A stretch of DNA of 64,000 bases from an uncultured Candidatus Rokubacteria bacterium (GTDB lineage Bacteria > Methylomirabilota > Methylomirabilia > Rokubacteriales > DASRDR01), in assembly GCA_963708025.1 (NCBI GenBank), contig CAVPSB010000018.1:256001-320000 (forward strand). Reading direction: 5' to 3'. A program made the translations under genes and the position numbers. This document shows, piece by piece, positions 11,113 to 53,855 of the stretch; the stretch's first letter is position 1; each line of letters opens with the position of its first letter. The notes beneath the pieces were generated by a model that searched no databases, was not told the origin of the DNA, and saw nothing but the letters and a program-made list of their open reading frames with translations.

Positions 11113-11385
11113 GGCCGATGACCCGTCGCAACTTCCAACCCGGTCGTGACGCGCTCGGTCTGTGCCGTTCGGACGGCCTTCGGCCTTTGGGCGTCCGTCC
11201 CGACCTCGGGGCGTCCTCCATCCCGGCCGCGGCGCGCTCGGCCTGCGGCCTCGCGTCCGCCGCGGCCTCTGGGGCCCGCGCCCGATATCCTCGAGCTACC
11301 AGGGCGTACGTCTCCGGTAGGCGCGGGCCTGCTTCGATCGGACGGCCTTCGGCCTGTGGGGGCCGCTCGCTCCTCGGCCTCGGCT
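11113..11385 (+). repeat. Intergenic repeat family 1 (divergent), with two 22-nt hairpin modules
   Basis: Starts GGCCGATGACCCGTCGCAAC like the copies at 13852, 20027 and 49416. Modules at 11169-11190 and 11338-11359. Confidence 0.75.
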
Positions 11386-11579
11386 CAGTGCTTCAGGCGG
11401 CCGTGGCGGGCGTATTGCTTGTGGCAACGCTGGCAGCGTAGCCAGCCGTGCTCGACCCGCCGCACGATCCAGCCGCAATGGGGGCAGAGCTGGAGCCATC
11501 TTCCCCAGGCGAGCCAGAGTCCCGCTGCGACGGCACCAGCCAGGAGCAACGCGGCGACCGCCACGATGCCGCCGGTCAT
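11385..11579 (-). CDS. Small membrane protein with Zn-ribbon
   Basis: Hydrophobic N-terminus, CPHC...CQRC. Confidence 0.6.
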   Translation of the reverse strand: MTGGIVAVAALLLAGAVAAGLWLAWGRWLQLCPHCGWIVRRVEHGWLRCQRCHKQYARHGRLKH

Positions 11580-11582
11580 GAC

Positions 11583-12422
11583 CTAGGGCTCGTCGTCTCC
11601 CTGCAAGGCGGCGTCCACCAGGCGAAAGGGAGCCTGAGCCCAGGTGGGCGGCCGGTCGGCCAGGAGCAACGCGCGGAAGGCGGTCAGGGCCGGTCCGGGC
11701 TCGATCTCGGGATTCCCATCGAGGGCTGCCAGGAGCTGCTCCGGCTCCTCGTAGGCCCAGCGGCTGACCCGGGCCACCGTCCCGAAGAAGCGGCGCACCT
11801 TCCGCTCCGCCGCCCGCTCGATCAGCGGCCGTGACAGCGCGGCCAGCACGTCGGCCAGGCCACCGAGGATCGGCGTGTCGATCCGGACGTGACCGGTCAG
11901 GGTCTGCTCGACGACCGTGCCGCCGGTCTCGGTCACCTCGTGGTGATACTCGAGCAGGATGAGGAGCTGGCCCTCGATCGTGGGGACGTGCCGCCGGTCG
12001 TACCGCCCCGCCAGGTGATAGAGACGGCGGTGGTCGTCGGCGTACAGGACGTGGATCGTCCCCGTCGCTCCCCGGTTGTCGTCGCCACGATAGCCGTCCT
12101 CGAAGGGCGTGACCCGGTACTCGCCCACCCGCAGGGCCCGCGCCACGCTGGCGGCGAAATCGGGGTGGTCGAGCAGGAAGACGTACACGGCCTCCCGACT
12201 CGGGAACCGGATGCCGCTGACCCGCTGGGCGAAGGCGCTCCGGGCCAGGACGGCTTCGGCCCGGGCCCGGGCGGGGCCGGGCAGCTCGCTGGTCGGGATC
12301 GGGAGCGGCAACGCATCGAGGGTGACGACCGGCAGCGGAAGCTCCTCGGGCTCGGTGACCCCGGGCCGCGGCATCGCGGTGAGGACGATCAGCAGGCCGA
12401 GCGCGACCAGGCGCCGCCGCAT
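11583..12422 (-). CDS. Exported hypothetical protein
   Basis: Signal peptide, 279-aa ORF. Confidence 0.65.
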   Translation of the reverse strand: MRRRLVALGLLIVLTAMPRPGVTEPEELPLPVVTLDALPLPIPTSELPGPARARAEAVLARSAFAQRVSGIRFPSREAVYVFLLDHPDFAASVARALRVGEYRVTPFEDGYRGDDNRGATGTIHVLYADDHRRLYHLAGRYDRRHVPTIEGQLLILLEYHHEVTETGGTVVEQTLTGHVRIDTPILGGLADVLAALSRPLIERAAERKVRRFFGTVARVSRWAYEEPEQLLAALDGNPEIEPGPALTAFRALLLADRPPTWAQAPFRLVDAALQGDDEP

Positions 12423-12568
12423 GGGGTCACCTTAGCACACGCCTTCCCACACGCGCTTTGCCAATCTTGACGCCTCGTTCTCGACTTTGTTAAAGTGGGC
12501 CACCTCGCGAGAGCCGGTCGGGCGAGGCCGCCGTCGCGGCCACTCGTGATGCAGGGAGGGCGTCGTCG

Positions 12569-12841
12569 ATGACGAAAGCCGAGCTGGTCACCAAGATGGC
12601 GGCCGCGTCCGGGGTGACCAAGGTCGCCGCCGAGAAGGCCCTCCAGGGCTGCCTCGCGAGCATCCGTGGGAGCCTCAAGAGAGGAGAGGCCGTGACGCTC
12701 GTCGGCTTCGGCACCTTCAAGGTGGGCCGGCGCAAGCCACGCAAGGGCCGCAATCCGAGGACCGGCCAGCTCATCACCATCGCCGCGGCGAAGGTCCCGC
12801 GGTTCCGCCCTTCCCGGGCCCTCAAGAACGCCCTCCGTTGA
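12569..12841 (+). CDS. hup: HU family DNA-binding protein
   Basis: MTKAELV...GFGTF...GRNPRTG; GGAGG RBS. Confidence 0.92.
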   Translation: MTKAELVTKMAAASGVTKVAAEKALQGCLASIRGSLKRGEAVTLVGFGTFKVGRRKPRKGRNPRTGQLITIAAAKVPRFRPSRALKNALR

Positions 12842-13806
12842 ATCCCGTGAGTGACCGGACCCCCGAGACGCCTGTGAGCACCGGACTCCGCCCATCGGGC
12901 CTTCGCGCTGCCCTCCTCGCCGCGCTCCTCCTCTGCGTGCCGGCGGTCTCCGGAGCCCAGTCGGCCTCGCCGGGCCTGACGGCCAGCGCCGGCGTGCTCC
13001 TCGATCTCGCCACCGGCCAGGTGCTCTACGCGAAGAACGCCGAAGAGGACCGAGCGCCGGCCAGCCTGGTCAAGATGATGACCCTGTTCCTCGCCTACGA
13101 AGACCTCCGGTCCGGCAAGGTGACCCTCGCCGACCCGGCCGTCATCAGCCAGAATGCCGAGCACACGCCACGCTACCGGATGGGCCTGGTCGCGGGGCAG
13201 GTCGTGCCGTTCGAGATCCTGCTGGCCGGCGTCGCCATCGCCTCGGCGAACGACGCGGCGACGGCGGTCGCCGAGCACCTGAGCGGAAGCGAAGAGGCCT
13301 TCGTGGATCGCATGAACGCGGCCGCCGGCGAGATGGGCCTGGTCCATACCCACTTCGCCAACCCCCACGGCCTGCCCGACCCCCGACAGCGGACCACCGC
13401 CCACGAGATGGCCGTGCTGGCCCAGCAGCTTCTCCGCGAGTACCCGGAGAGCCGCGAGGTCCTGGGCCAGACCGCGTTCACGTGGCGGAGCCGGCTCTAC
13501 CAGCGGCGGATCCCGCTCTTCCGGGATCCCGGCGGCGTGGACGCGCTCAAGACCGGGTTCACGCTGGAGGCGGGCTACAACCTGACCGTGGCGGCGGGGA
13601 AGGCCGGTCACCGCCTGCTCTGCGTCATCCTCGGCGCCGAGACGCGCGGGCTGTCCTTCCTGGATGCCGGGCGCCTCCTGAAGTTCGGGTTCGGCGAGCC
13701 GGTCAAGGAGGTGAGGCGGCCGCCGCGTCGCTGGCGTCTGCGCGGCGGACCGGCGGCGGCCACCAAGCCGGTTCCCCGGGCCGTCTCGCGGCCGGCGGGG
13801 CGCTAG
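12838..13806 (+). CDS. D-alanyl-D-alanine carboxypeptidase (peptidase S11)
   Basis: PASLVK (SxxK), SAN, KTG and NPHGL motifs; signal peptide. True start may be slightly downstream. Confidence 0.9.
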   Translation: MNPVSDRTPETPVSTGLRPSGLRAALLAALLLCVPAVSGAQSASPGLTASAGVLLDLATGQVLYAKNAEEDRAPASLVKMMTLFLAYEDLRSGKVTLADPAVISQNAEHTPRYRMGLVAGQVVPFEILLAGVAIASANDAATAVAEHLSGSEEAFVDRMNAAAGEMGLVHTHFANPHGLPDPRQRTTAHEMAVLAQQLLREYPESREVLGQTAFTWRSRLYQRRIPLFRDPGGVDALKTGFTLEAGYNLTVAAGKAGHRLLCVILGAETRGLSFLDAGRLLKFGFGEPVKEVRRPPRRWRLRGGPAAATKPVPRAVSRPAGR

Positions 13807-13851
13807 CTAGGTCCTTTGAAGCGCCAGAAGTAAGGCAGACGAGTGAAGTTC

Positions 13852-14027
13852 TTGGGGGCGGGGCCGAGGAGCGAGCAGCGCTAGGACGCAGGGAGTCGCC
13901 GACCGCAGGCGTACTCTCAGTACGCCGAGGATCGGCGACGACCGAGGACGACCATGGGTCGGGACGGCCGCGAGGCCGCAGGCCGAGCGCGTCCCGGCCG
14001 AGATGAACGTTGCGACGCTCATCGGCC
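13852..14027 (-). repeat. Intergenic repeat family 1 (copy without the hairpin module)
   Basis: Highly similar to 20027-20213 and 49416-49538. Contains a GCGTACT-N3-AGTACGC hairpin and the micro-ORF MSVATFISAGTRS... Confidence 0.85.
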
Positions 14028-14034
14028 CCGCCCG

Positions 14035-14397
14035 CTAGTCGTCGGGTCGGGCGTATTCCGGCTCGACCGACGACCTCACGACCCGTCCTTCCCCGTCGAG
14101 GTAGACCAGGATCCGGTCGTAGCGATCGAGCCGGTCGTTGCCGTCCCCGCCGTAGTAGCGGGACGGGTTGACCTCGACCGCGACCCGGCGCCGGTATACG
14201 AGCACCTCGCCCACGTCGGAGGCCCGCACCTCGACGGGGGAGCCGAACCGGGCGATGACCTCGTCGCGGGTGGTCGCGGTGCCGGGCGGGTCCTGAACGG
14301 TGAGGAGCGGAGGCTCGCGGAGGGGGACGAAAGCCTGGCAGGCGGTGAGCACCGCCGGCAGGGCGAGCCGGCCAACCAGTCGGGCGAATGCTCTCAT
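14035..14397 (-). CDS. Putative lipoprotein
   Basis: LTAC lipobox and TRDEVIARFGSP motif; ATGA overlap with the upstream ORF. Confidence 0.6.
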   Translation of the reverse strand: MRAFARLVGRLALPAVLTACQAFVPLREPPLLTVQDPPGTATTRDEVIARFGSPVEVRASDVGEVLVYRRRVAVEVNPSRYYGGDGNDRLDRYDRILVYLDGEGRVVRSSVEPEYARPDD

Positions 14398-14639
14398 GCG
14401 CCTACCCTGCGCCGTGACGGTCGAACCCATCGCATCGCGATGTGCACGGCATAGCCCTCGGCGTCTTCAGCGGTCTGAAAGGTGCGGTCGTCGGGGTCAC
14501 CGAGCGGCCGCTCGCGGCCGCCGCCAGGGAGCGGGACCCGGACGACGGCGTGCGCCGCCCACTCGCCGTCCTCGGACTCGGCCACGGGGACGGCGTGGGC
14601 GTTGATCTGATGCCCCTTGTACGTGACGTTCCGGGCCAC
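14394..14639 (-). CDS. Small hypothetical protein
   Basis: GTG start after TACAAT; MARNVTYKGHQI... Confidence 0.55.
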   Translation of the reverse strand: MARNVTYKGHQINAHAVPVAESEDGEWAAHAVVRVPLPGGGRERPLGDPDDRTFQTAEDAEGYAVHIAMRWVRPSRRRVGA

Positions 14640-14701
14640 GGCGGGGCCATTGTACGGGTTCGAGCCGGCCGAGGCAAGGCAACGGCGCGACGGAGGAGTC
14701 G

Positions 14702-15364
14702 ATGCACGTCCGGGCGCTCCTGTTCGACGCATACGGCACCCTCTTCGACGTCCACTCGGTGGTCGCCGCGGGCCGCGCGATCACCGCGGATCCCCGGGCC
14801 CTGTCCGAGCTGTGGCGGGCCAAGCAGCTCGAGTACACCTGGCTCCGCACGCTCATGGGCCGCTACGAGGACTTCTGGGCGGTCACCGAGGCGGCGCTGA
14901 CCTTCGCCTGCCGCCGCCTGGGTCTCGCGGCCGGGCCTGCCGAGCGCGCCCGGCTCATGGAGGCGTACCTCGCCCTCGACCCGTTTCCCGAGGTCCGGGT
15001 CGTGCTCGAGCGGCTCCGGGACCTGCCGTGCGGCATCCTCTCGAACGGCGCGCCGCGGATGCTGGAGGCGGCGGTGTCGCACGCCGGTCTCGGCCCTCAC
15101 CTGCGGGCGGTGATCAGCGTCGATGCCGTCCGGCTCTTCAAGCCGACTCCCCAGGTCTACGCGCTCGGCCCGGACCGGCTCGGCGTGCCGAAGGAGGCGA
15201 TTGGCTTCGTCTCCTCGAACTGCTGGGACGTGGTGGGGGCCAAGGCCTACGGCTTCCAGGTCGTGTGGGTCAACCGAGGACGGGCCCCGCTCGAGGAGCT
15301 GGGCGTCCACCCCGACCTGGAGGTGGACGACCTCGAGGGCCTGGCGCGCGCCCTCGGCCGCTGA
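14702..15364 (+). CDS. Haloacid dehalogenase type II
   Basis: FDAYGTLFDV, WRAKQLEYTW, LSNG, FKP, VSSNCWDVVGA; GGAGG RBS. Confidence 0.92.
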   Translation: MHVRALLFDAYGTLFDVHSVVAAGRAITADPRALSELWRAKQLEYTWLRTLMGRYEDFWAVTEAALTFACRRLGLAAGPAERARLMEAYLALDPFPEVRVVLERLRDLPCGILSNGAPRMLEAAVSHAGLGPHLRAVISVDAVRLFKPTPQVYALGPDRLGVPKEAIGFVSSNCWDVVGAKAYGFQVVWVNRGRAPLEELGVHPDLEVDDLEGLARALGR

Positions 15365-15378
15365 CGAACCGTGCTACG

Positions 15379-15527
15379 GTGAGGGCCCTGAAGGAATCCA
15401 GTCCTTCCGGCCCCCCTCCCCCCGGTGCCCGCCGGAGGGACGGGACGTCGCGAGGGCTGTAGGCCCGAGCCGTCCTGGCGATCCGGTCAATTGGGAGGGG
15501 GGTTGGGGGGTGGGCGGGAGGTCCCGA
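15379..15527 (+). repeat. Intergenic repeat family 2 (C-rich and G-rich arms)
   Basis: CCCCCCTCCCCCC...GGGAGGGGGGTTGGGGGGTGGGCGGGAGGTCCC, shared with 16199, 31187 and 51545. Confidence 0.85.
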
Positions 15528-16184
15528 ACGGAGCTGACGATCAAGACCGCCGACGAGCTGGTGGACCCCGCGCTCGAGGCCCGGCTGGTGGCGCGGCGGG
15601 CCAGGCGTCAGGATCCTGCCCTGCAAGCGATCCTGCGCCTGTTCCTCGATCGCGGCGGCCCGGTTGGCGCCGATGCGATCGCGGCGGCGGTACCCGGTCG
15701 CCCTCGCGACGCCGTGCTCGCCACGCTGGCCGAGCTGGACGCCGAGGACCTGATCCTGCTGGGCGACGGTGGGGTCGAGCTGGCCTACCCGCTCGCCACC
15801 GGTCCCAACCCCTTCGCGGTGGCCTTCGCCGACGGGCGGCTGCGCTACGCCTGCTGCGCGATCGACGCCCTCGGCATCCCCGCGATGGTCCGGCAGCCGG
15901 TGGCGATCCGCTCCCGGTGCCACCACTGCGAGGCGCCGCTCCACTTCCCGGTCGACCCGACCGGCCCCGGTCGCGCCGCCGACGGCGTCATGGTCTGGGT
16001 CGGCGCGTGGGGAGCGCGCACGCAGAAGGTGTGCACCTCCCTCTGAACGGTCCTGAACTTCTTCCGGTCGGAAGAGCACCTGCGAGCCTGGCGGCGCGAG
16101 AATCCGGACGTGCCCGGAGCCGCCGCGACGGTCGCCGAGGCGTTCCGGCTGGGCCAACGTATCTTCGGCGACCTCCTCACCTGA
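15510..16184 (+). CDS. merB: MerB-like organomercurial lyase, probable selenoprotein (TGA 16044-16046 = Sec)
   Basis: [10 protein letters not shown] matches MerB Cys96/Asp99. The frame continues past TGA as [15 protein letters not shown]...IFGDLLT. Start is uncertain (GTG 15510 or ACG 15528). Confidence 0.8.
16047..16080 (+). promoter_or_regulatory. Putative bacterial SECIS element
   Basis: Stem TCTTCC/GGAAGA with apical loop GGTC starting 19 nt after the TGA. Confidence 0.7.
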
Positions 16185-16198
16185 GCGTGTGCTAACCA

Positions 16199-16293
16199 AG
16201 AATCCGGTCGTCCGGCCCCCCTCCCCCCGCCAGAGGCCGAAGGCCGTCGCGATGGTGGGGGAGGGGGGTTGGGGGGTGGGCGGGAGGTCCCGA
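16199..16293 (+). repeat. Intergenic repeat family 2 (short), with hairpin module
   Basis: Same arms as 15379-15527; inverted module at 16230-16252. Confidence 0.85.
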
Positions 16294-16297
16294 TAAA

Positions 16298-16920
16298 TCA
16301 GGACCTGGCGGCGCGCCGGACGGCGGCGTCGCGCAGCCCGCCGAGCGCCGAGATGGTGCCCCGCCGCTCGAAGTAACCGGCCATCGGCTGCCAGCCGGTG
16401 GGGATCGAGCCCATGGCGTAGACGACGAGAGTGCCGCCGTCCTCGGGGACGAGCTGCCAGAAGCCCCAGTTGTCCTCCCAGAGGTCGTTCTCCCGTGTCG
16501 TGTCGAGCCGCCAGGCGAGGATGTGGTCGAACCGGCTGGAGACGATAGCGCATGTGGTAGCGGAAGCTGAAGGGCCCGAACTTGCCCTCGTTCCGGATGA
16601 CCCACGCCTCCGCGCTCTCCTCCAGCACCTCCACGGTCCGGAGCCCGGGGAAGATCTTGGGGTAGCGCGTCGGCTCGGTCAGGATCGCCCACACGGGCTC
16701 GGGGCCCGTCGGCACCCGGATGAACGACACCGCGCCCCGCGCGCCGGATACCGGGACGCCGTCGCGCGGTGGCGGGCCGTCGCGATAGACCACCTCGCCC
16801 CGGGTGAGTCGCTGCCGCTCGTCGGCCGAGAGCGCGGGTGGCGGGGCGCCGGTCGCCGGTCCGAGCAGGAGCTGCGACGGCCAGCGCCGCGATCACGACG
16901 GCGCTCGCATGGGCTCGCAA
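16298..16920 (-). CDS. SRPBCC/START family exported protein (frameshifted)
   Basis: Signal peptide, VWAILTEPTRYPKIFPG, WRLDTTRENDL...GTLVVY, spread over three frames. Confidence 0.65.
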
Positions 16921-16948
16921 CCCTCGGACTTCTCGCCACGCGGTCGTG

Positions 16949-17025
16949 GCGTTCCACTTCGAGCCGCGGCTTGCCGCGGCCTCCGCGGGGGGGTCTCGGG
17001 GGGGTCTTCCGAGACCCCCCGAAGA
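16949..17025 (-). repeat. Intergenic repeat family 3
   Basis: Matches 53760-53855; GGGGGGTCTCGG...CCGAGACCCCCC palindrome. Confidence 0.8.
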
Positions 17026-17027
17026 TT

Positions 17028-18626
17028 TCAGGCCTCACCGGGGCGCAAGGGTCGGAGCTCGCCCTCCACCGGCGCCAGCCCCCGGGTGCCCGCCGGACGG
17101 CGGGCGCGCCCGAGCGCGGTCACGAAGATCGCGTCCTTGCCCTGCGCATCGGGCGAGAAGAAGCGGACGACGTCGGCGTCGTAGAAGGTCAGTCCCGACG
17201 CGCCGAGGCCGAGGGCGTACGCGGCCAGGTACATCCGGCCCCCGAGAAGTCCGGCCACGAGGTTCACCGCGCGGTAGCCGCGGTCGCCGTAGCGGGCGAG
17301 CGCGGTGTCGAGGTCCGCGAGGAAGAAGACGACCGCGCTCGCGTCGGCCCCGATGGACTGCTCGAGGCAGAGATAGCCGCCCTCGCTCCGGAACTCGCCG
17401 GCCCGGAGCTGCCGCAGGCCCCGGCCGGCGGCGTCGTAGACGTAGGCTCCGGACGGCAGCCCGTCCACGGCGTGGACGAGGAGGTAGCACTCGACGAGGC
17501 GGCCGTCGGGGTCGGTGACGTCGAGCGGCAGCGGGCGGACGGCGGCGTCGAGGATCGTCGAGAGCTGGGAGAAGGCCACGGGCTCGCGGGCGAACTGCCG
17601 GGTCGACCCCCGCCGCAGGATGACCTGCCCCAGCGGGACCGCCGGTGGATCCGGGAGCGGCGCCAGGGGGTGTGAGACGGGCTCGCCGGGCGCATCCGGC
17701 GCCTTCCGCTCGGCCCCGGCCGCGACCCAGGCCGCCGCGGCGGCGGCGCTCGGCAAGGAGGAGGCGGCGTAGGCCTGCGACACCAGCGGGTAGTCCATCT
17801 CGCGGGAGGACAGCGGGACGGTCGTCAGGGCCAGCGGCTCGAGTGGCGGCGCCGGGGGGGGCGGCGGCGCGTCCCGGCCGAGCGTGACGAGGGCGAGCGC
17901 GGCCTCGTGATCCGCGTCGAGGCCGAGCAGTCGGTTCACGGGGGCGTCGGCGAAGCCGAGCTGGATCCGGGCGGGAACGTCCGCGGCTTCCGCAGTCGCG
18001 AGCAGGTTGGCGAGCAGCGTCCCCGAGTCCCAGAAGAAGTGGCGAAAGGCGCGGGCCTGGTACTTCCACGTGTTCCGCCAGTAGATGGCGGAGAGCACCA
18101 GGGTCGCCGGCGCGCCGGCGATCGCCTCCGGCGCGCCGGCGGCGCCGGCGAGCGCGGCGCGCCAGTCACCGGCCCGGAGCCGGCGCAGCGTGAAGTCCCC
18201 GGGACAGAAATGGTACACGCCCGGATCGAGGCCGGCCACGGCGCCGGCGACGACGTACATCTCCACCTCGTAGAGCGCGCCGGTGGAGGCCGCGGCCCGG
18301 AAGTGAATCGTCTCGCCGCCCGGATAGACCTTCTTCTTCGTCAGCCCCGCCGAGAAGAACAGGATCTGGGCCAGGGCTTCGAGGGAGAGCGGCCCTCCGC
18401 CGCCGGCCGCCACCCGCCCGAGCGCCTCCAGCGCCGCCAGCGCGGGCCCCGGCAGCTCGCGGGGGAGCGCCGTCGCCGGGGCGTCCGGGTAGAGCTTGAA
18501 CGGGAAGGGCTTGATCGCCCAGTCGAGGAAGTGGCCCCCGCTCCGGACGCTCTCGGGCGAGTGCCGGGTCGCCGCGTGGTACGCGCGGGCGCCGATCGTC
18601 CCCGCGCTCGCCGGGTCCCGGCGCAT
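17028..18626 (-). CDS. SagB/ThcOx-like double nitroreductase-domain dehydrogenase
   Basis: RAAASTGALY, WKYQARAFRH, RRGSTRQF, GLTFYD; TGATG coupling with the upstream ORF. Confidence 0.85.
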   Translation of the reverse strand: MRRDPASAGTIGARAYHAATRHSPESVRSGGHFLDWAIKPFPFKLYPDAPATALPRELPGPALAALEALGRVAAGGGGPLSLEALAQILFFSAGLTKKKVYPGGETIHFRAAASTGALYEVEMYVVAGAVAGLDPGVYHFCPGDFTLRRLRAGDWRAALAGAAGAPEAIAGAPATLVLSAIYWRNTWKYQARAFRHFFWDSGTLLANLLATAEAADVPARIQLGFADAPVNRLLGLDADHEAALALVTLGRDAPPPPPAPPLEPLALTTVPLSSREMDYPLVSQAYAASSLPSAAAAAAWVAAGAERKAPDAPGEPVSHPLAPLPDPPAVPLGQVILRRGSTRQFAREPVAFSQLSTILDAAVRPLPLDVTDPDGRLVECYLLVHAVDGLPSGAYVYDAAGRGLRQLRAGEFRSEGGYLCLEQSIGADASAVVFFLADLDTALARYGDRGYRAVNLVAGLLGGRMYLAAYALGLGASGLTFYDADVVRFFSPDAQGKDAIFVTALGRARRPAGTRGLAPVEGELRPLRPGEA

Positions 18627-18889
18627 CAGCGCCGGGGTCGCCGCTGGCGCTCGGGGGGCGGTGGCGGCTGGCGCCGGGCCGCGGCCGCCGCCGCCTGCGA
18701 CGTCTGGCGGAACGCGGTCGCGTCGTTGTCGGTCTTGCCGCCGACCTGGCTTCCGCACTGCTGGCAGACGTAGTCGTACTTGTTCCCCGTCGGCAGGACG
18801 AGGAGGAGCTTCTTGCGGACCTCGACCGCCCGGCGGCAGCGCGGGCAGAAGAGGCTGCTGGCTTCGAACTCACGATACGCGTCGCGCAT
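18626..18889 (-). CDS. Small Zn-finger cytoplasmic protein
   Basis: LFCPRC...LLLVLP...YVCQQCG; AAAGG RBS. Confidence 0.75.
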   Translation of the reverse strand: MRDAYREFEASSLFCPRCRRAVEVRKKLLLVLPTGNKYDYVCQQCGSQVGGKTDNDATAFRQTSQAAAAAARRQPPPPPERQRRPRR

Positions 18890-19104
18890 GGTCGAGCCTT
18901 TCCGTCTAGGGTAGCCGCCTACCGATTGAGGGGTGGCACAAAGCCCGTCAGGTCGCCGTTAGGTCTATACTACACGGACCAGACCGAGAACCGCTCACCG
19001 GAGGGCCCGGATGACTCCACTGCCGAACGATCGCGACACGAAGCTCGTCGCCGGCAAAAAGCCCAGCCAGATCATCGAGATCGGGAAGACCGGTTAGAAG
19101 CGCC

Positions 19105-20020
19105 ATGGCCACGCACTCGACGGAGGCCCTGCAGCAGCGGTTCGGCATCCCGGACGTCGTGCGGTTCGAGGACGGTCCGAACGGGCTCGTCCGGGTCCGC
19201 GTCACAGCGCCCGCCGCCGAAGCCGAGATCTATCTCCATGGGGGCCACGTGACCCACTACCAGCCGCGGGGCGGCCGGCCGGTCCTCTTCGTGAGCGCCC
19301 GCAGCCGGTACGACGCGAAGTCGGCCATCCGCGGCGGCGTGCCCGTCATCTTCCCCTGGTTCGGCGCCAAGGCTGACGATCCCGCGGCGCCGCAGCACGG
19401 CTTCGTCCGCGCCACGGCCTGGGACGTCGAGTCGGTCGAGCGGGTGGCCCCGGACGCGGTGACCCTCGTGCTCCGGCTGGACGCGAGCGATGCCACCCGG
19501 GCCGTGTGGCCGCACCGCTTCGTCCTGCGCCACCGCATCGGCATCGGGGCGGCGCTCGACCTCGCCCTCGAGGTCGACAACGGCTCGGCGGAGCCCATCG
19601 CCTTCGAGGAGGCGCTCCACACCTACCTGGCGGTCGGCGACGTGCGGGAGGCGTCGGTGACCGGGCTGGCCGGCACGACGTACATCGACAAGACCGACGG
19701 CATGACGCGGAAGCGCCGGGGCCCGGAGCCTCTCCGCCTGGCCGGCGAGACCGACAGCGTCTACGTGTTCAACGCGGGCCACCTGCGTGGTCGACGACCC
19801 GGTCGGACGCCGGCGCCTGGTCGTGGAGAAAGAGGGATCCGATACCACGGTCGTGTGGAATCCGTGGGCCACGAAGGCCAGGACCCTCAGCGACCTCGGC
19901 GCCGACGAGTGGCCGGGGCTGCTCTGCATCGAGACCGCGAACGCCGCCGACAACCGGGTCACCCTGGCCCCCGGCGGGCGCCACCGCATGCGCGCCACCA
20001 TCCGGACCGAGCCCCGCTGA
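19105..20020 (+). CDS. D-hexose-6-phosphate mutarotase (aldose 1-epimerase family), frameshift near 19775
   Basis: IRGGVPVIFPWFG, QHGFVR, ALHTYL, VVWNPW, LCIETAN. Confidence 0.9.
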
Positions 20021-20026
20021 GGGCGG

Positions 20027-20213
20027 GGCCGATGAGCGTCGCAACGTCCATCTCGGTCGAGACGCGCTCGGCCTACGGCCTCGCGTCCGTCCCGACCTAA
20101 AGGTCGTCCTCGGTCGTCGCCGATCCTCGGCGTACTCGCGGTCGGCGACTCCCTGCGTCCTTCGGACGGCCTTCGGCCTGTGGGCGCTGCTCGCTCCTCG
20201 GCCCCGCCCCCAG
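20027..20213 (+). repeat. Intergenic repeat family 1, with hairpin module
   Basis: Aligns with 13852-14027; module at 20162-20183. Confidence 0.85.
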
Positions 20214-20292
20214 CGTGTCTTGTCTGGTCTCGCTATGGCGTAACGTCGTGGCCGACGCAGGCGTGTACGGGCGCGATCGGAAGCTGCCCGCC

Positions 20293-21246
20293 CTACTTCG
20301 GCGCGAGGGCCAGCATCCTGAGCGGCGACCCCGAGGCGCCCCGGATCCGGAGCGGCGGCACCACCAGGCAGAAGAGATTGACCCCGGCCGCGCCCAGGTC
20401 CTCGAGATTCGCGTTCTCGACCAGGTAGACGCCGTTGTCGGCGATCAGGAGCATGTGGACCGGGAACAGCTCCGGGCCGTTCACGGCCGGCCGTACCTCG
20501 TAGGTCGCGGTGTCGGTGCCCGTCAGCCGCACACCCTGGGCGGCGAGCCAGCGGGCCGCGTCGACGCCGGGCCCCGGCGACTTCTCGCCGAGATAGAGGG
20601 CGTTGTCCTTGCCGAAGTACTGACCCCAGCCGGTCCGGATCAGGACCGAGTCGCCGCGGCGGACCTGCACGCCGTGAGCCCGAGCCGCATCCTGGAGGTG
20701 CTGCGCGGTGATCACGAAGCCCGGCGCCAGCGGGTCCGGCCGCCCGCCCCCCGCGACGCGGGCCACGTCCAGGAGGATGCCCCGCGAGAGCAGGAGGTCC
20801 GCCGGGAAGGCCTCGATCCCGAGGTCGTTCCCGATGCCGTCCGGCCGCGCGGTGGCGGCCACGGCGTCCACCCCGCCGTGCAGCTTCAAGTTCCGGCCGA
20901 TGTGGCCGATGGCGTCGATCGTCGGCGCCCCGTGCTGCCCGGAGAAGTAGAGGATCTCCGATGTCCAGGAGACCTGGCTGCCGGGCGCCGAGCCGTACAC
21001 CTCGTGCGTCTGCCGGTGCGTGGCGTTGAGCGCGAAGGCGTACGGCGGGTTGAGGGACAGGACCGGCGAGCGGGAGTCCCACACGAAGCCCAGATCGAAG
21101 ACCCGGGCCGCGCGCACGCCGGTGATGAAGGTTTCGACACTCGCGGTATCGGCCGCGGCCGCCGGCGTGGCGGTCAGGGCGGAAGCGGCCACGACCGAGG
21201 CGGCGGCGGCGATGAAGTCGCGGCGGGACACGTCATCGGGCGTCAT
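20293..21246 (-). CDS. Cyclase family (kynurenine formamidase-like) protein with Tat signal
   Basis: SRRDFI, QHGAPTIDAIGH, LIRTGW, GASGSPLR. Confidence 0.85.
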   Translation of the reverse strand: MTPDDVSRRDFIAAAASVVAASALTATPAAAADTASVETFITGVRAARVFDLGFVWDSRSPVLSLNPPYAFALNATHRQTHEVYGSAPGSQVSWTSEILYFSGQHGAPTIDAIGHIGRNLKLHGGVDAVAATARPDGIGNDLGIEAFPADLLLSRGILLDVARVAGGGRPDPLAPGFVITAQHLQDAARAHGVQVRRGDSVLIRTGWGQYFGKDNALYLGEKSPGPGVDAARWLAAQGVRLTGTDTATYEVRPAVNGPELFPVHMLLIADNGVYLVENANLEDLGAAGVNLFCLVVPPLRIRGASGSPLRMLALAPK

Positions 21247-21281
21247 GACTTTCCTCCCTGAACGGCCCGGGTCCGGGCCCG

Positions 21282-21923
21282 CTACTGGGTGGTTCCGGTC
21301 CGGGGCATGGTCCGCGGCTCGGCCGGCGGGAGCGACGAGGACAGGCGCTGGGCCAGGATCCCCACCAGGAGGAGGATCGCCAGGAGCACGAGGGCGACGA
21401 CGGCGATCCGTCTCCGGGGGTTCCTGGCGTCCGGCTGGCCGGCCTTCCGGACCGGTCGCTCCGTGAGGAGCATCTCGGCCGGGCTGGCGGGATGGAGCCG
21501 CCACAGCGCCGGGTGAGCCCCGAGCGCCTGGATCCGCTGGCGGGCGGCCTCCGCTTCCTCGTGGGTGAGGGCGAGAAACGTCGCGAACTCGCCCTGGGTC
21601 AGCCCCGCCTGCACCTCGGACAGCGGGTGGGCCGGCGCCACCTCGCACAACCAGCGGGCCACCCGGTACCGGAGCCGCTCGTCGGCGAGCGCCTTGAAGG
21701 CGAGGGTGTAGGGTTGCTTGGTGCCGGACAGCGGGGCCACGCTCGGCGCGGCCTTCGGTCCGGCAGCGGCGGCGGGCTTGGCGCCGGCCGCCGCGCGTGC
21801 CTGGGCGGCCGTTCCGCCGCCGTTCAGGGGCGCCCGCTCGGCCGGCACCCGGAGGCGCGCGCCGCAGCGCAGGCAGAACAGGCTCTCGTCAGGAACGTTG
21901 GCCTGGCACTTCGGGCAAGTCAC
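21282..21923 (-). CDS. Zinc-ribbon domain membrane protein
   Basis: GGAGG RBS, CPKC...FCLRCG, C-terminal TM. Confidence 0.75.
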   Translation of the reverse strand: MTCPKCQANVPDESLFCLRCGARLRVPAERAPLNGGGTAAQARAAAGAKPAAAAGPKAAPSVAPLSGTKQPYTLAFKALADERLRYRVARWLCEVAPAHPLSEVQAGLTQGEFATFLALTHEEAEAARQRIQALGAHPALWRLHPASPAEMLLTERPVRKAGQPDARNPRRRIAVVALVLLAILLLVGILAQRLSSSLPPAEPRTMPRTGTTQ

Positions 21924-21955
21924 GTGGCCCCCTCCTCCCGACCGGCCGCGCCGCG

Positions 21956-23302: not shown

Positions 23303-23574
23303 GTCGCCCCCTGGGCTCGGAGGAACGGTCCGCGCCGGCCCCTTTGCCGGTAGCGGGTAGAATACGGCCGCCGACCCGGCAAAATCAAATCGGCAGACGG
23401 GCCCGGCTGGGTCCCGCCGGCGGGCGGGGTCGCTCGAGACCGGGTCGCCACCCCGTCTGAGGGCGCTCGGCTTTCCACGCACCGCCCGGCCCGGTTCCGC
23501 TTCGTGGCCATCGCCCGCTCGGGATAGAATCCCCCATACGCCATGCGCGCGAGGGATCCAGCTCAACTGGCCGT

Positions 23575-24102: not shown

Positions 24103-24103
24103 T

Positions 24104-25490: not shown

Positions 25491-25494
25491 CCGC

Positions 25495-26160: not shown

Positions 26161-26200
26161 GCGGGGACGGGAGGCTCAGGCGCGCGGCGCCCGGGGTGGT

Positions 26201-27022: not shown

Positions 27023-27134
27023 ACCGCCCCCTTTTGCGATGCATCGACGTCGGGAATCGCCCCGACACGCGCCCGCGCGTCCGCGGGACGCCAGATTCAA
27101 GCATGCGGCTCGGACTGTGTCAACCGGAGGCAGC

Positions 27135-27174
27135 GACACCGAGGCAGGCAACACCGAGGCAGGCGACACCGAGG
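27135..27174. repeat. 15-bp tandem repeat (RACACCGAGGCAGGC, about 2.7 copies)
   Basis: Directly visible upstream of the ABC operon. Confidence 0.75.
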
Positions 27175-27262
27175 TGGGAATACTGTGGTCGGGAGACCGG
27201 GGCCCAGGCTCGTCGGCCGGGCGCCGGCGCCGGACGTTGCCGAGGAAGTGCCGGTGGACGGT

Positions 27263-27306: not shown

Positions 27307-27327
27307 AGTGAGGCGAAAGGAGTGCGC

Positions 27328-31190: not shown

Positions 31191-31384
31191 TTGGGGACCT
31201 CCCGCCTACCCCCCCAGCCCCCCTCCCGATAGACCGGATCGATCGGACGGCCTTCGGCCTGGGGGGGACGGCTCGGGCCTGCGGCCGATCGGACGGCCTT
31301 CGGCCTGTGGGCGACGTTCCGTCCTTCCGGAGGCCACTGGGGGGAGGGGGGTGTCGGAGGACCGAGACCTTCAAGCGCTCTCAC
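31187..31384 (-). repeat. Repeat family 2 with two hairpin modules; 65-aa micro-ORF
   Basis: Aligns with 15379-15527; modules at 31243-31264 and 31289-31310. Confidence 0.85.
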
Positions 31385-48955: not shown

Positions 48956-49412
48956 CTAGTAGCGCGGGCGGCCGTCCAGGACCTCCCGGACCTTGCCGGC
49001 GAAGGCGTCGGGCGCGAACGGCTTCTGGATGAGGGTGATGCCCGGATCGAGGACGCCGTGGTGCACGATCGCGTTGTCCGTGTAGCCGGACATGTAGCCA
49101 CCCGCCGCATGGCTTCCTCGGTGGTGAGGTCCAGGGACAGGGCCTGACCGACCGCCAGGAGGGCCTCGGTCTCCCTCAGCCGCTCGGTGGTCTCGGAGAG
49201 CAGCCGGGCGTTCTCCAGGGCCAGGGCCGCCTGGTCCGCGAACGTTTCCAGCAGCGTGACCTCGGCTGCCGGGAAGAGGCGACCCGGCCGGTCGGCGATG
49301 GAGAGCGCGCCGATGATCGTCCTCTTCGCCCGCAGCGGCACCGCCACCATCGCCCGCAGCCCTGACCGCTGCACGCGCTGCCGCACGTCGTCGGTGAGCG
49401 TGATCGCGGCAT
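48956..49412 (-). pseudogene. Remnant of a hybrid sensor kinase (GAF fragment joined out of frame to a receiver tail)
   Basis: FADQAALALENARL, then YMSGYTDNAIVHHGVLD...QKPF in another frame. No kinase domain is present. Confidence 0.75.
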
Positions 49413-49415
49413 CGC

Positions 49416-49538
49416 CGAGGATCGGCGACGACCGAGGACGACCCTAGGTCGGGACGGACGCCCAAAGGCCGAAGGCCGTCCGAACGGCGCAGTCCGAGCG
49501 CGTCCCGGCCGAGATGAACGTTGCGAAGCTCATCGGCC
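49416..49538 (-). repeat. Intergenic repeat family 1 (5' part), with hairpin module
   Basis: Aligns with 13852-14027; module at 49462-49483. Its ATGA supplies the stop of the upstream gene. Confidence 0.85.
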
Positions 49539-50570
49539 TCGCCCGCGCCGCTCGAGCCAGGTCAGGGCGCCGAGGGCCAGCAGCACGGCGAGCCCGAGCC
49601 CGGCCGTCACCGAGAGCGCGGCCTGCTTGGGGAGGCGGGAGAGGAGCACCGCCGCGCCGCCGAAGGCGGCGCTGGCGCCGAGCAGGCAGCCCACGGCCTG
49701 CTGGGGCGAGAGCCCGAGTCGCAGGAGCCGGTGGTGGAGGTGGCCCATGTCCCGCCGGAGCGGGTTCCGGCCGCGGGCGGTGCGCCGGACGACCGCGAAG
49801 ACCGTGTCGACCACCGGGAGGCCGAGGGCGACCAGGGGCAGGAGCAGCGTCATCGCCGCCGTCGTCTTGCGATTCTCCAGGAGCGCGATCGCGGCCAGCA
49901 CGAGCCCGATGAAGGTGCTGCCGACGTCGCCGAGGAAGATCCGCGCGCGGGGGAAGTTGTAGGGGTAGAAGCCGACGATCGCGCCGGCGAGCACGAGGGC
50001 GAGGATGGCCACGTCGCGCTCGTTCTTCAGGGAGCCGACGGCGCACAGGGTCAGGGCCGCGATCCCACCGATGCCCGGGGCCAGCCCGTCGAGGCCGTCC
50101 ACCAGGTTGAGGCCGTTGATCACGGTGGCGACCCACAGCATCGTCATCACAAGGCCGAGCGATCCGAGCGGGATCGTGGAGCCGAACGGGTTCGTCAGCT
50201 CTACCACCTGGAGCCCCGAGAAGTACAGGATCGCGCCCGCCGCGAAGTGGACGGCGAGCTTGGTGGGGATGCCGCACGTCCGCAGGTCGTCCCACACGCC
50301 GACGACGACCACCGGCACCGCCGCCAGCGTGATGCCGATGGCATGGGACAGGGAGATCCCGATTCCGATGCCCTGCAGGACCCACAGGGTCCCCAGCACC
50401 GCCACCGCCAGGCCGAGACCGCCGAGGGTCGGCACCGGCTCGACGTGGACCTTCTGCACGCCCGGGTAGTCGAGCGCCCCGGCCCGCCGCGCTTCGGCGA
50501 TCACCAGCGGCGTCAGGGCGAAGGCGGCGCCGCTGGCCAGCAGGAAGGCCGCCAGGTCGGCCGGGGTCAT
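49530..50570 (-). CDS. WecA/MraY-like undecaprenyl-phosphate GlcNAc-1-P transferase
   Basis: GVWDD, NLVDGLDGLA, IFLGDVGS, DMGHLHHRL. Confidence 0.9.
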   Translation of the reverse strand: MTPADLAAFLLASGAAFALTPLVIAEARRAGALDYPGVQKVHVEPVPTLGGLGLAVAVLGTLWVLQGIGIGISLSHAIGITLAAVPVVVVGVWDDLRTCGIPTKLAVHFAAGAILYFSGLQVVELTNPFGSTIPLGSLGLVMTMLWVATVINGLNLVDGLDGLAPGIGGIAALTLCAVGSLKNERDVAILALVLAGAIVGFYPYNFPRARIFLGDVGSTFIGLVLAAIALLENRKTTAAMTLLLPLVALGLPVVDTVFAVVRRTARGRNPLRRDMGHLHHRLLRLGLSPQQAVGCLLGASAAFGGAAVLLSRLPKQAALSVTAGLGLAVLLALGALTWLERRGRGR

Positions 50571-51487: not shown

Positions 51488-51500
51488 GTGCGTCCCGGCG

Positions 51501-51529: not shown

Positions 51530-51544
51530 GCCGCCGACTGTTTG

Positions 51545-51624
51545 GATCCTCCCTCCCACCCCCCAACCCCCTCCCCCACCCACCGGGGGGGAGGGGGAGC
51601 CGGAGGGACCGGCGGCTTTCAAGG
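51545..51624 (-). repeat. Intergenic repeat family 2 (short, no module)
   Basis: Matches 16199-16293 minus the module. Confidence 0.8.
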
Positions 51625-51659
51625 ACCGATCCGAAGATGCGGGCGGTGTCCAGGCCTGG

Positions 51660-53564
51660 TCATGGGTCGCGCCACCGGATCTCGCCCATCATCACGCCGA
51701 GCCGCCGGTCGTCGCGCGATGGGGAGAGGCGGCTCGGCACGAAGCTGTGACCGGTCTCCACCTCGACCAGCGCGTGGGCGCCGACCGGCTGGCCCAGCGG
51801 GACCTCGAGGGTCTGCCACTCGGCGGCAGTCAGCCGCAACACGGCCACCAGCCGGCGATCGACCCAGAGCTGGACGGTCTGCGGCCGCGAGGCGATGTCG
51901 GGAATCGGCGCCCGGAACGCCAGCAGCATGACCCGCCCTCGGATCGGCACCGTCAGCGCCGCGCGGGGCCCGGTCCAGCGGGCCGGGCTGCCGTCGGGCT
52001 GGCGCTCCCATCGGTAGAACCCGGCCTCGTACCCGGGCGAGACCGGGCGCTCGAGCGCCGCCTCTGCCCGCAGGCCGAGGCAGACCAGGCCGAGGGCGAC
52101 CGCGGTGAGGGCCCACCGGGGCGACCGGACGGGGCGCGGCTTCGCCGGGGCCAGCGCGGCGGCCGTCCCGGTCAGGATGCAGGCCAGGTAGAAGAGCGCG
52201 TTGACGCGGAAGGTGAACTGGACGGCGCCGTAGGCGAGCCAGCCGGTCAGGCTGGCCACCACCCCGCTCAGCAGCACCGCGGAGGGCTCCGTCGCCCGGG
52301 GGAGACTCCGGAGGGCGCCGAGCCAGATCCCCCCGAACAGGGCCGCGAAGCTGGCGAGCCCGACCAGCCCCTGCTCGGCCAGCAGGTGGAGGTAGAGGCT
52401 GTGGGCCGTGCCCCAGAACGGGCCGAAGGACTCGCGCAGCGCGCCGGCGTACTGGTGGAAGAAGAACGCGTAGCGACCGGTCCCGACGCCGAGGAGCGGG
52501 TGGTCCAGCGCCATCCGGAGCGCGGTCTGCCAGAGCCGCAGCCGGTTCGGGTCGTCGGCGAACCGGGCCAGTCGCCCGGCCACCCGGCCGTGGAGCACGA
52601 AGGCGTCGAGCATCACCGCCGCCAGGATGGCCAGGACGACCGCGCCGAGGATCGACACCGCCCGCCGGTGACCGTCTCGGGCCGGACGGCGCCCGACGAG
52701 CAGGCCGAGCGTGACGAACGCGACGAGCGCGGCGAGGTAGGCGGCGCGCTGGAAGGTGAAGACGAGGGCCAGGCTCCCCAGCCCGGCGGCCGCGACTCCG
52801 AGCGCGCGCCGCCAGCGGGGGGCGGCGGGCGGCAGGGCCAGCGCCGCCAGGGGCGGGAGGACGAGGACCAGGAAGAGAGCCAGGTAGTCCGGGTTCCACG
52901 CGACGGCGGTGAGCCGGAGATCCGGACGCTGCCAGGTCCAGAACGACAGCGTGAGGTACTGGCCGGCGGTGTGGATCACGCCGAAGAAGCGGAGGAGACC
53001 GAAGCCGGTCAGGGTGAGGACGATCGCGGCCAGCGCCGGGAGCGCGCGCACGACCGCGGCCCCCATCGCCGGCTGGGCGGCGACGGCCAGCAGTCCCGTG
53101 CCCAGGCCGAGGACGAGGACCCGCTCCAGGTACTTCAGGTGCGAGATGTCGGGGATACCCTGCGTGAGCATCGTGGACCAGTCCAGCGAGTCGAGGAGCC
53201 AGAGGTCCTCGAGGAGGTCGCGGAGGTCGAGCGGGAGCGCGAGGACGGCGGCGGCCACGAAGGCGAGCAGGGCGGCGCCGTGCGACGGGAGGAACCGGAC
53301 GCGACCCAGCAGCCAGTGGCCGAGGAAGCTGCCCAGGACGAGCGCCACCAGGATCGGCTCGAGCAGGAAGTACCGCGTCTTCGGCTCGCCGAGCAGGAAC
53401 GGCACGACGAGCAGGAGGGCGGCCAGCCCGTTCGCCGGGTGCCGGATGGTGGTGACCCCGATCCCGATCGACACCAGGGCGGCCGCGATCGGCGCCGGGA
53501 GCCCGCCCGCGGCCGCCAGGAGCCCCACCACGGCGAATCCCGCCAGGACCCACCAGGGCGACAT
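51660..53564 (-). CDS. O-antigen ligase family protein
   Basis: Many TMs, NPDYLA, RLRLW...HPLLGVGTG, AHSLYLHLLAEQG. Confidence 0.85.
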   Translation of the reverse strand: MSPWWVLAGFAVVGLLAAAGGLPAPIAAALVSIGIGVTTIRHPANGLAALLLVVPFLLGEPKTRYFLLEPILVALVLGSFLGHWLLGRVRFLPSHGAALLAFVAAAVLALPLDLRDLLEDLWLLDSLDWSTMLTQGIPDISHLKYLERVLVLGLGTGLLAVAAQPAMGAAVVRALPALAAIVLTLTGFGLLRFFGVIHTAGQYLTLSFWTWQRPDLRLTAVAWNPDYLALFLVLVLPPLAALALPPAAPRWRRALGVAAAGLGSLALVFTFQRAAYLAALVAFVTLGLLVGRRPARDGHRRAVSILGAVVLAILAAVMLDAFVLHGRVAGRLARFADDPNRLRLWQTALRMALDHPLLGVGTGRYAFFFHQYAGALRESFGPFWGTAHSLYLHLLAEQGLVGLASFAALFGGIWLGALRSLPRATEPSAVLLSGVVASLTGWLAYGAVQFTFRVNALFYLACILTGTAAALAPAKPRPVRSPRWALTAVALGLVCLGLRAEAALERPVSPGYEAGFYRWERQPDGSPARWTGPRAALTVPIRGRVMLLAFRAPIPDIASRPQTVQLWVDRRLVAVLRLTAAEWQTLEVPLGQPVGAHALVEVETGHSFVPSRLSPSRDDRRLGVMMGEIRWRDP

Positions 53565-53759
53565 CTCGCCCGGTGGCGGCGCCTCACTGGTGCCAGCGAC
53601 CGTGGCGGCCGCGCCGGCGATGCCCCCAAGGCTCCCGCGCCCTCCCGGCTCAGCTCGGGACCTCCGAAGAACCCGGAGGGGGTGAAGGAAAGCCGGCGGC
53701 TCCCATTCCGGTCGCCTGTCGGTTTCTCTCAGCGCTCCGGCTCCGCCCACGGGGCCGGG

Positions 53760-53855
53760 GCGTTCCGCTACGAGCCGCGGCCCAAAGGCCGAAGGCCGTC
53801 CAACAACCACGGCCTCCGCGGGGGGGCCTCGGGGGGGTCTTCCGAGACCCCCCCG
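53760..53855 (-). repeat. Intergenic repeat family 3, with hairpin module
   Basis: Matches 16949-17025; module at 53782-53803. Confidence 0.8.

Follow-up and report, generated by a model that had tools for sequence, protein, structure and literature searches.

Repeats within repeats of the kind reported here are rare, and the nearest described thing is the set of SDR families of the Nostocaceae. SDR1-8 (Elhai et al. 2008) are reportedly dispersed repeats of 21-27 nucleotides (nt), some of them palindromic and present in hundreds of copies, which are nested in other repeats and also in each other and are said to occur at filled as well as empty sites. We know of no enzyme for the SDRs, of no mechanism put forward since 2008 and of no other comparable case. 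Among other systems, NIMEs are repeat modules bracketed by dRS3, 'peel and paste' transposition of IS200/IS605 elements depends on a Y1 transposase and on two hairpin ends that differ from each other and has a lagging-strand bias, and DNA uptake sequences are short words that point change, rather than insertion, has made over-represented across coding and non-coding DNA. No SDRs are reported outside the Nostocaceae (PMC5861425). The REP, BIME and REPIN repeats of E. coli and Pseudomonas are short extragenic palindromes that occur in hundreds of copies and build mosaic elements (PMC3116915 and PMC6006769, the latter also naming 'peel and paste'). The hairpin repeat NTS/dRS3 of Neisseria is described as 20-30 nt long, with oriented non-palindromic flanks and hundreds of copies; a 94-amino-acid (aa) GIY-YIG gene (Ssn single-strand nuclease) adjoins the repeats in most such genomes, and a role in transformation rather than in insertion is proposed for them (PMC11893778). 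Here we analysed a window of 64,000 nt (G000:C18:256001-320000) from the genome of a soil bacterium of the Candidatus Rokubacteria (G000; 8.17 Mb, 71.2% GC, 49 contigs, 99.67% complete), which contains eight copies of a 21-nt hairpin unit nested in several unrelated repeat families, with filled and empty forms of its sites existing side by side. We favor, with a probability of roughly 0.5, the reading that the unit is a REP/SDR-like micro-repeat that is, or recently was, mobile as DNA and spreads in two tiers without an enzyme of its own.

The unit is built on an 11-nt core, GGCCTTCGGCC, which was found eight times in the window (at 11175, 11344, 20168, 31249 and 31295, and as reverse complement, rc, at 16235, 49467 and 53787), where 0.15 copies were expected and the largest count in shuffled sequence was 2, and 633 times in the genome. 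A first-pass annotation of the window, made from its sequence alone, had listed eight motif copies; its positions hold for the core, whereas the exact 22-nt string that it gave, TCGGACGGCCTTCGGCCTKTGG, is present in five copies (0 expected, 100 shuffles), the other three differing solely at variable flank positions. Genome-wide, about 650 copies have the conserved block T-Y-S-GAC-GGCCTTCGGCC-T-K-T-GG, and the 21-nt unit has the consensus Y-S-GAC-GGCC-TTC-GGCC-T-K-T-GG, with no coding content; about 60 bare cores without flanks are chance words within genes. Matches to GACGGCCTTCGGCCTNNGG at 0, 1, 2 and 3 mismatches numbered 486, 609, 670 and 936, compared to 0, 3, 16 and 249 for the reversed control. 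Over the 633 copies, positions -3 to +11 and +14/+15 were 86-100% identical (the 5' bases G-A-C at 89, 86 and 92%, preceded by the variable Y-S), position -6 was T in 70%, positions -5, -4, +12 and +13 were two- or three-state, and identity outside -6 to +15 dropped sharply to about 40-60%, apart from a semi-conserved C-G-W-C at -12 to -9 that recurs in unrelated hosts. The fold had been announced as a cUUCGg hairpin, but the actual structure pairs GGCC with GGCC in a 4-bp stem around a loop of 3 nt (TTC, or GAA on the opposite strand) and is not a C(UUCG)G tetraloop. The stability of the TGTGG form and of two minus-strand DNA forms was like that of shuffled sequences (z of -0.23 to +0.57; TGTGG as RNA, z = +0.57), while the TTTGG form (11166-11193) gave z = -0.43 as DNA and -2.2 as RNA, with 12 pairs. 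No covariation past the 4-bp stem was evident in the variant counts.

Nearly all copies lie inside other repeats, as had been noticed for the copies of the window: of the 535 full copies, 483 are flanked on both sides by sequence that recurs in the genome, 46 on one side only and 6 on neither. The hosts comprise at least six hairpin-forming families resembling miniature inverted-repeat transposable elements (MITEs), with at least 12 site types, nearly all of which were found in both states. MITE1 has 17-nt terminal inverted repeats (GGCGGGGCCGAKGAGCG) enclosing an optional A hairpin and a B hairpin, and its 163 complete copies fall into length classes of 122/143/164 and 175/197/218/239 nt. A poly-C/poly-G hairpin family counts 333 elements of 64, 85, 106 or 127 nt, and a D hairpin module of 60 nt is inserted in poly-C loops (123-124-nt class); two GC-hairpin families with GAA triloops and two more families complete the list. 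Folding of the whole MITE1 DNA puts sites b and c in the internal loop flanking the B hairpin on either side, and the GAA and poly-C sites are hairpin loops. Among the hairpin modules nested in one another, the unit is thus the smallest, and its orientation within a host is fixed, with 163 forward and 0 reverse copies in MITE1 and 175 and 0 in poly-C elements. A search for an autonomous partner of MITE1 yielded three inverted-repeat pairs 0.8-4.7 kb apart, none of them convincing. Some further observations concern the hosts themselves. Outside the window, six empty poly-C loops follow each other at a 100-nt period (G000:C2:216086-216611), forming a tandem host array. Poly-C elements are strongly oriented against the local GC skew (134 vs 62; window examples at 16204-16291, minus, and 31194-31359, plus), while the unit itself is unbiased, and the left end of poly-C elements reads GGCGGGAGGTCCC on the opposite strand, which in two copies lies directly upstream of an ATG, like a ribosome-binding site.

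To map filled and empty sites, the 60 nt on either side of each copy were matched back to the genome and the distance between the matched flanks was measured. Distances peaked at 1, 22, 43, 63/64, 84/85 and 105/106 nt (9561, 8392, 475, 217/104, 146/78 and 150/72 pair matches), that is, with a 21-nt step, so that the net unit is 21 nt long, in agreement with the gain proposed from the window pairs. At least one empty counterpart was found for 316 of 631 copies. Empty and filled copies numbered 205 and 96 at the poly-C loop, 118 and 77 at MITE1 site c (plus 5 double), 63 and 52 at site b (54/23/2 in a second left context), 49/39/4 at site a, 54/34 and 16/6 in the two GAA-loop families and 38/2, 36/3 and 2/5 at the D-module sites. 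We also confirmed that filled sites show no target duplication; instead, the last 3-5 target bases give way to 24-26 nt. The empty state is uniform, reading CCT-A-G, CCT-C-G (four sites), GC-GAA-GC or CCC-A-CC, and a common target, YCCT(C/A)|G (YCCTMG), is seen at five site types. On filling, 2-5 bases 5' of the unit are changed at fixed length, CTA, CTC, GAA or GCCTC becoming NNT or TCGAT plus 21 nt. The junctions were most diverse at MITE1 site c: CCTA was present in 91 of 107 empties, while 92 filled copies displayed 24 different 4-mers (CCAT 20, CCTT 19, CGAT 14, CGGT 6, CGTT 5, CTGT 5 and others), the two middle bases reaching an entropy of 1.5-1.7 bits, which matches that of unique flanking DNA. 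The entropy of host positions was similar between filled and empty site-c copies.

The direction of change was read from related genomes. The unit (486 exact copies here, in genus g1) was found 8-64 times in 14 of 15 genomes of a second genus, g5, was absent from five other genera of the family (g2, g3, g4, g6 and g7) and occurred once among the 127 genomes of the sister family. The empty MITE1 site-c sequence CTGCGTCCTAGCGCTGCTCG, searched at up to one mismatch in one genome each of g2, g3, g4, g6 and g7, was found there 18, 40, 31, 8 and 22 times, compared to 95 times in this genome and 0-3 times in g5. Since empty sites are abundant in genera without the unit, the empty state is the older one, and the filled sites record gain and not loss. 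Empty poly-C elements were counted 229 times here, four times in each of two other genomes and not at all in the other 28 genomes searched; because this family is nearly confined to the present genome and yet about one third of its elements are filled, filling must have continued after the genera split. The opposite proposal, that host repeats lost the unit from an ancestor that had it at every position, finds a possible route in the slippage by which direct 21-nt repeats can be lost, as in MITE1 forms without the B hairpin, but the empties are uniform where the filled junctions are diverse, and they abound where the unit does not exist. Nor is the unit an adapter or library artefact. A scan of genomes from 185,579 species gave at least 60 unit loci from many separately assembled genomes (among the matches listed, mostly with Candidatus Rokubacteria or Methylomirabilota titles, and single hits in a few other high-GC taxa), and the unit is present in contigs of public sequencing runs from three studies. 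As far as these data go, loss and artefact are both refuted, and we regard either as extremely improbable. In g5 the unit occupies other hosts and carries a 5' extension GAT and runs of 10-nt half-units; a search for empty forms of these hosts gave six matches under an overly strict pattern. In one g5 genome (G010, L061-L090), the unit is followed by one to three copies of the 10-nt half-unit CGGCCTGTGG, often after partial left halves (GATCGGACGG…), and is part of a larger unit of about 60 nt with GCTCA(C/T) at its borders.

A sequence-specific process would be one way to produce such insertions: a trans-acting, strand-specific enzyme, of the HUH/RAYT type, Ssn-like or of an unrecognized kind, would insert the folded single-stranded unit into hairpin loops without target duplication, and most copies would be separate insertions. 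The unit length, which is exact at no fewer than 12 non-homologous site types, the strict orientation (338 forward, 0 reverse), the target common to five site types, the missing target duplication and at least six recurrent junction forms at one site are what such an enzyme would leave behind, and the Y1_Tnp domain (PF01797) was detected in 9 of 15 genomes of g5, the only other genus with the unit, and in none of five genomes of genera without it. However, the present genome, with about ten times more copies than any other, gave no Y1_Tnp match (the control was positive in 6 of 14 genomes). The g5 Y1 genes lie at a single syntenic locus with their own flanking inverted repeat (GGGGTCAGACTTTGACTT / AAGTCAAAGTCTGACCCC), and no unit-like match at up to three mismatches was found in the 4.5-8 kb examined per locus, i.e. 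within about 4 kb of the gene; one locus (L178) has one bare 11-nt core about 1 kb downstream of Y1. The HUH/RAYT mechanism that the first-pass annotation had considered is therefore not borne out, as this genome lacks the domain, the g5 genes are unlinked to the unit and the unit shows no bias towards either replication strand as judged by GC skew (186 vs 164, p = 0.26, excluding copies in weak-skew regions and on short contigs). The g5 Y1 gene is IS200-like and single-copy, has a C-terminal helix-turn-helix-like tail and was located at the same syntenic locus in four genomes (L175:3949-4899, L176:3552-4523, L177 and L178); it resembles a RAYT-type gene that has been domesticated and keeps a repeat of its own.

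Other enzymes fared no better. The sole match to the GIY-YIG domain (PF01541) in the genome lies within a 641-aa frame, which we take to be UvrC by its size alone; no small nuclease of the Ssn type was found in the genome, and with the only match in so long a frame the Ssn paradigm does not apply. None of the seven IS110-type genes has a unit within 2.5 kb, and we accordingly ruled out that IS110 elements use the unit as a target. A search for an enzyme gene flanked by the motif found 25 open reading frames (ORFs) with a unit on both sides, and none of the 20 that were scanned with Pfam is plausible (18 are metabolic or housekeeping genes, one encodes a DUF4238 protein and one has no Pfam match). 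Virtually no copies are present in unique DNA, and site-specific unit variants with linked host changes, described below, point to founders rather than to hundreds of separate events. Overall, we consider transposition by a dedicated enzyme unlikely.

The distribution of the unit within host families suggests that most of the approximately 650 copies are probably secondary, having arisen by multiplication and exchange of filled hosts and not by hundreds of separate insertions. Each site has a dominant unit variant (TGGGG at site a, TTTGG at b, TGTGG at c and TTCGAC…TTTGG at the poly-C left site), and a G-to-A change in the host stem is linked to filling in the GAA family (27 of 34 filled copies vs 0 of 38 empties listed). 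All four occupancy combinations of MITE1 sites b and c and seven of eight combinations of a, b and c were found among the 134 of 163 copies that could be parsed, with b and c correlated (00, 01, 10 and 11: 31, 10, 10 and 23). Hosts identical at 115 of 115 bases can be (1,1), (0,0), (1,0) or (0,1), and occupancy differed in 92 of 150 pairs at a host distance of at most 1, compared to 2821 of 3812 at a distance of at most 20. Adjacent units on the same strand are spaced by 21, 38, 49 or 83 nt, with 24 pairs at 21 nt and opposite-strand neighbors limited to 1-2 pairs per class. In MITE1 copies without the B hairpin, a lone unit links the left flank of site b to the right flank of site c, which fits the 84/85-nt class of flank distances. 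An array of 16 head-to-tail variant units (CATCC-GGCCTTCGGCC-TCTGG) was seen at G000:C15:314356-314690, with an exact 21-nt period and one 19-nt unit.

These patterns bear on a second possibility, namely that the unit entered each site once in the distant past and is now immobile, so that the present mixtures reflect amplification of host subfamilies and occasional deletion. Such a fossil would account for the site-specific variants and the linked host substitution, for the fixed orientation and the correlated occupancy of b and c, and for the fact that one host site type, GGGCCTGCGGCC|…|GCGACG, is filled in both this genome and g5. It is decidedly unlikely, however, as occupancy is almost independent of host sequence, as nearly every three-site combination exists, as the poly-C family was filled after the genera had split and as the tandem arrays represent ongoing local change. 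In the two-tier reading, the second tier, which as a whole is largely shown, would have three components: copies would travel as passengers of multiplying MITE-like hosts; exchange among the copies of one host family would uncouple occupancy from host sequence; and slippage would give tandem arrays with an exact 21-nt period and, between units 84 nt apart, would delete the intervening module.

The position of the unit relative to genes was assessed with crude, GC3-based gene calls (70% coding), which make all location statistics approximate. Most copies (517 of 670 at up to two mismatches) lie outside called ORFs; for 104 the first possible start is no more than 200 nt away, and 48 are deeper. 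Of these 48, 13 have both flanks in one frame and, inspected by eye, turned out to be chance partial matches or read-through intergenic repeats, with no in-frame insertion among them. The earlier remark that a gain of 21 nt preserves the reading frame is thus beside the point, because the copies are intergenic. Spacers were classified for the 334 copies that have a called gene no more than 500 nt away on each side (271 copies without a near gene call were excluded), and were co-directional in 271 cases, convergent in 47 and divergent in 16, although divergent spacers make up 17.5% of the spacer length, and orientation relative to the genes was unbiased (65 vs 77; 67 vs 62). The scarcity in divergent, promoter-only spacers could indicate that the unit is a selected functional module, a binding site or an RNA or DNA hairpin (for a nucleoid protein, as a transcript-end stabilizer or as a recombination joint) that is kept or recruited by selection. 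The near-invariant 15-nt center between bases that are free to vary, and the place of the unit between modules, like the joints of mosaic repeats, would fit as well. Selection, however, cannot create identical 21-nt insertions, so a copying process would still be required; in addition, the orientation towards genes is random, five sister genera do without the unit and no Rfam family matched the window at the gathering score. We regard a functional module as highly unlikely to be the explanation. Apart from these counts, an open frame resembling an ABC-transporter ATPase (IEFRDVWFAY … LRGLSLRIEHGERVA) at G000:C10:98040-100070, outside the window, has a whole repeat element of about 150 nt embedded in frame. 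This element belongs to a family with GGGGAGTCCCAAC…GGTCCCCCCCT ends, contains the unit variant GGCCGGAGGCC and resembles the in-gene palindromic elements of Rickettsia.

In the first tier of the favored reading, primary insertions would be rare; the site types counted are 12 or more. At each of them, a patch 24-26 nt long, made up of some variable bases, T and the 21-nt unit, would replace 3-5 bases of a single-stranded loop or of a linker between hairpins, usually at YCCT(C/A)|G or at a GAA-type triloop and in constant orientation. Most likely, this patch would be copied from another copy when replication runs into the hairpins, either through template switching or through short-patch conversion with a microhomology of 2-4 nt (CG…G) as its anchor. 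We infer such patch copying from the replaced 5' bases, from the upstream C-G-W-C, from the slippage products and from the outcome of the enzyme searches, which returned no candidate.

Several observations weigh against the two-tier reading. Its weakness lies in the primary step, and none of the events in the proposed copying was observed. A fixed 21-nt quantum, a strict orientation and a common target are expected of a sequence-specific enzyme and less so of template switching, and the hairpin is not unusually stable by nearest-neighbor models, a kind of model that underestimates the C-GAA-G triloop found on the GGCC-GAA-GGCC strand. The junction bases of site c differ in 54-69% of pairs whose hosts are at most 1 base apart in 115, and they are not linked to the 3' variant of the unit; such near-random bases are explained neither by passenger spread nor by copying from a donor. 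The equivalent positions of site b are far less variable and do track host distance. The location statistics given above are only approximate. Finally, contigs of four public runs (Logan), compared with window positions 11100-31090, cover the genes at about 90-99% likeness, end at the repeats and in no case bridge a unit site, and a metagenome scan for a close relative with the 576-aa protein encoded at 17028-18758 returned 80 loci with a best identity of 75% and 0 units in 702 kb. With no orthologous locus from a close relative and with contigs ending at repeats, these data do not show a recent gain or loss at a fixed locus.

A bolder version of the enzyme-free reading makes the unit a 'parasite of parasites', in which a 4-bp palindrome with fixed flanks would be copied into hairpin loops by template switching at stalled forks and would then rise within host families through conversion biased to the filled state, hairpin loop-outs in heteroduplex DNA escaping repair. 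On this view, the larger A, B and D hairpin modules of the genome, which also occur as insertions in loops, may have spread in this way as well. This is a tentative proposal that we think unlikely; if true, it would define a class of mobile DNA by structure alone.

Within the window, all five pairs of filled and empty sites that had been named could be aligned. One involves two complete MITE1 copies. The first (20022..20208, plus; head inverted repeat 20022-20038, A hairpin from 20061, B hairpin from 20112, tail inverted repeat 20192-20208) has sites a and b empty and carries a unit at site c, after the B hairpin (20162..20183, plus), while the second (13857..14032, minus, 176 nt) is empty at all three sites (CCT-A-G, CCT-C-G) and represents the empty allele; 13850-13965 rc aligned to 20090-20240 with a 21-nt gap, an A standing in place of the 22-mer. 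Two further copies lie in a composite MITE1-like element reaching the tail inverted repeat at 11368-11384, one at the A-hairpin site (TCGGAC-GGCCTTCGGCC-TTTGG, 11169..11190, plus) and one directly before the tail (…TGTGG, 11338..11359, plus), and another (49462..49483, minus) fills the A-hairpin site of an incomplete MITE1, which has its head inverted repeat at 49527-49543 (minus) and breaks off within the B hairpin. The empty stretch 20020-20150 aligned to the filled stretches 49395-49560 rc and 11105-11215 with a 21-nt gap at this different site.

The poly-C family provides two of the pairs. The element at 31194..31359 (plus) shows three nesting levels, a poly-C element whose loop contains the 60-nt D hairpin module, which in turn carries units at its first (…TGGGG, 31243..31264, plus) and second site (…TGTGG, 31289..31310, plus); its counterpart at about 15380..15525 (minus) has the D module with both unit sites empty, and 31180-31385 aligned to 15375-15540 rc with two gaps of 21 nt. 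A simpler poly-C/poly-G element (about 16204-16291, minus) has a unit in its loop (GCGAC-core-TCTGG, 16230..16251, minus) and corresponds to an empty element with the loop CACCCACC (51545..51605, plus); the MAFFT gap between 16190-16310 rc and 51535-51630 was 19 nt, which is ambiguous within the C/G run. The last copy (TTGGAC-core-TTTGG, 53782..53803, minus) takes the place of the triloop in a GCCGCGGC hairpin element, an empty member of which lies at about 16930..16992 (minus), and 53740-53865 aligned to 16925-17030 with a gap of 22 nt. Two other observations were made in the window. An extra B-hairpin start (GGTCGTCGCCGATCCTCGGCGTA) at 31492-31514 (minus), about 130 nt past the poly-C element with the D module and units, stacks repeat families in a single intergenic region, and at 23773-24439 the contig depth in all four public runs was 20-200 times that of neighboring bins, with many loose ends at 24373-24431. 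This deep segment is probably a very conserved gene segment common to many organisms and not a repeat of this genome.

In size, the unit is at the lower limit for anything showing the behavior of mobile DNA. It offers an unusually clean data set: some 650 copies that obey a strict 21-nt quantum, a dozen defined target sites for each of which hundreds of empty controls exist, sister genera with empty hosts but without the unit, and no RAYT or Ssn gene, so that the question whether short hairpins can spread by replication or repair alone becomes directly testable. In Rokubacteria-type genomes, whose non-coding fraction is large, it also shows how much of that fraction consists of nested hairpin modules, and it serves as a warning that assemblies of these organisms from short reads will be interrupted at such sites. 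In the literature searched, with subscription papers and supplements outside the search, we found no description of the unit or of such repeats in Rokubacteria or Methylomirabilota, and the core word GGCCTTCGGCC appeared in seven unrelated papers. The impression that the element was undescribed therefore holds for this sequence and lineage in that literature but not for its kind, given the SDRs of the Nostocaceae.

Compared to known systems, the unit differs from DNA uptake sequences in that its copies are insertions in repeats, core matches within genes lacking the flanks, and from a MITE in having a 4-bp stem only and no target-site duplication, whereas its host MITE1 has 17-nt terminal inverted repeats. 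With IS200/IS605 elements it shares hairpin-bearing DNA, the lack of target duplication and insertion adjoining a short specific sequence, but it has one 4-bp hairpin, no Y1 gene and no strand bias. Like REP and BIME repeats, it lies mostly between convergent or co-directional genes and is combined with other motifs. Unlike REP sequences, it has a conserved G-A-C in place of the GTAG-type 5' tetranucleotide, is half the size and sits inside other repeats rather than forming the repeat, while neighboring units are direct and not inverted doublets as in REPINs, and the genome has no RAYT as in REP-RAYT systems. REP/BIME and NIME/dRS3 resemble the unit in using a short palindrome as a joint within mosaics, but a dedicated gene accompanies both and is missing here; from dRS3/Ssn the unit also differs in its unrelated sequence and in that the only GIY-YIG match is in the 641-aa frame. 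The B hairpin bracketed by two units nevertheless recalls the NIME modules bracketed by dRS3. Set beside the SDRs, the present unit replaces 3-5 target bases, has an absolute orientation in each host, has virtually no copies in unique DNA and none seen in structural RNA genes, and it is unrelated in sequence and phylum, SDRs belonging to AT-richer cyanobacteria and the unit to a Rokubacteria-type genome of 71% GC. What the two reportedly have in common is a unit in the size range of 21-27 nt that occurs in hundreds of nested copies, at filled and empty sites, in one lineage.

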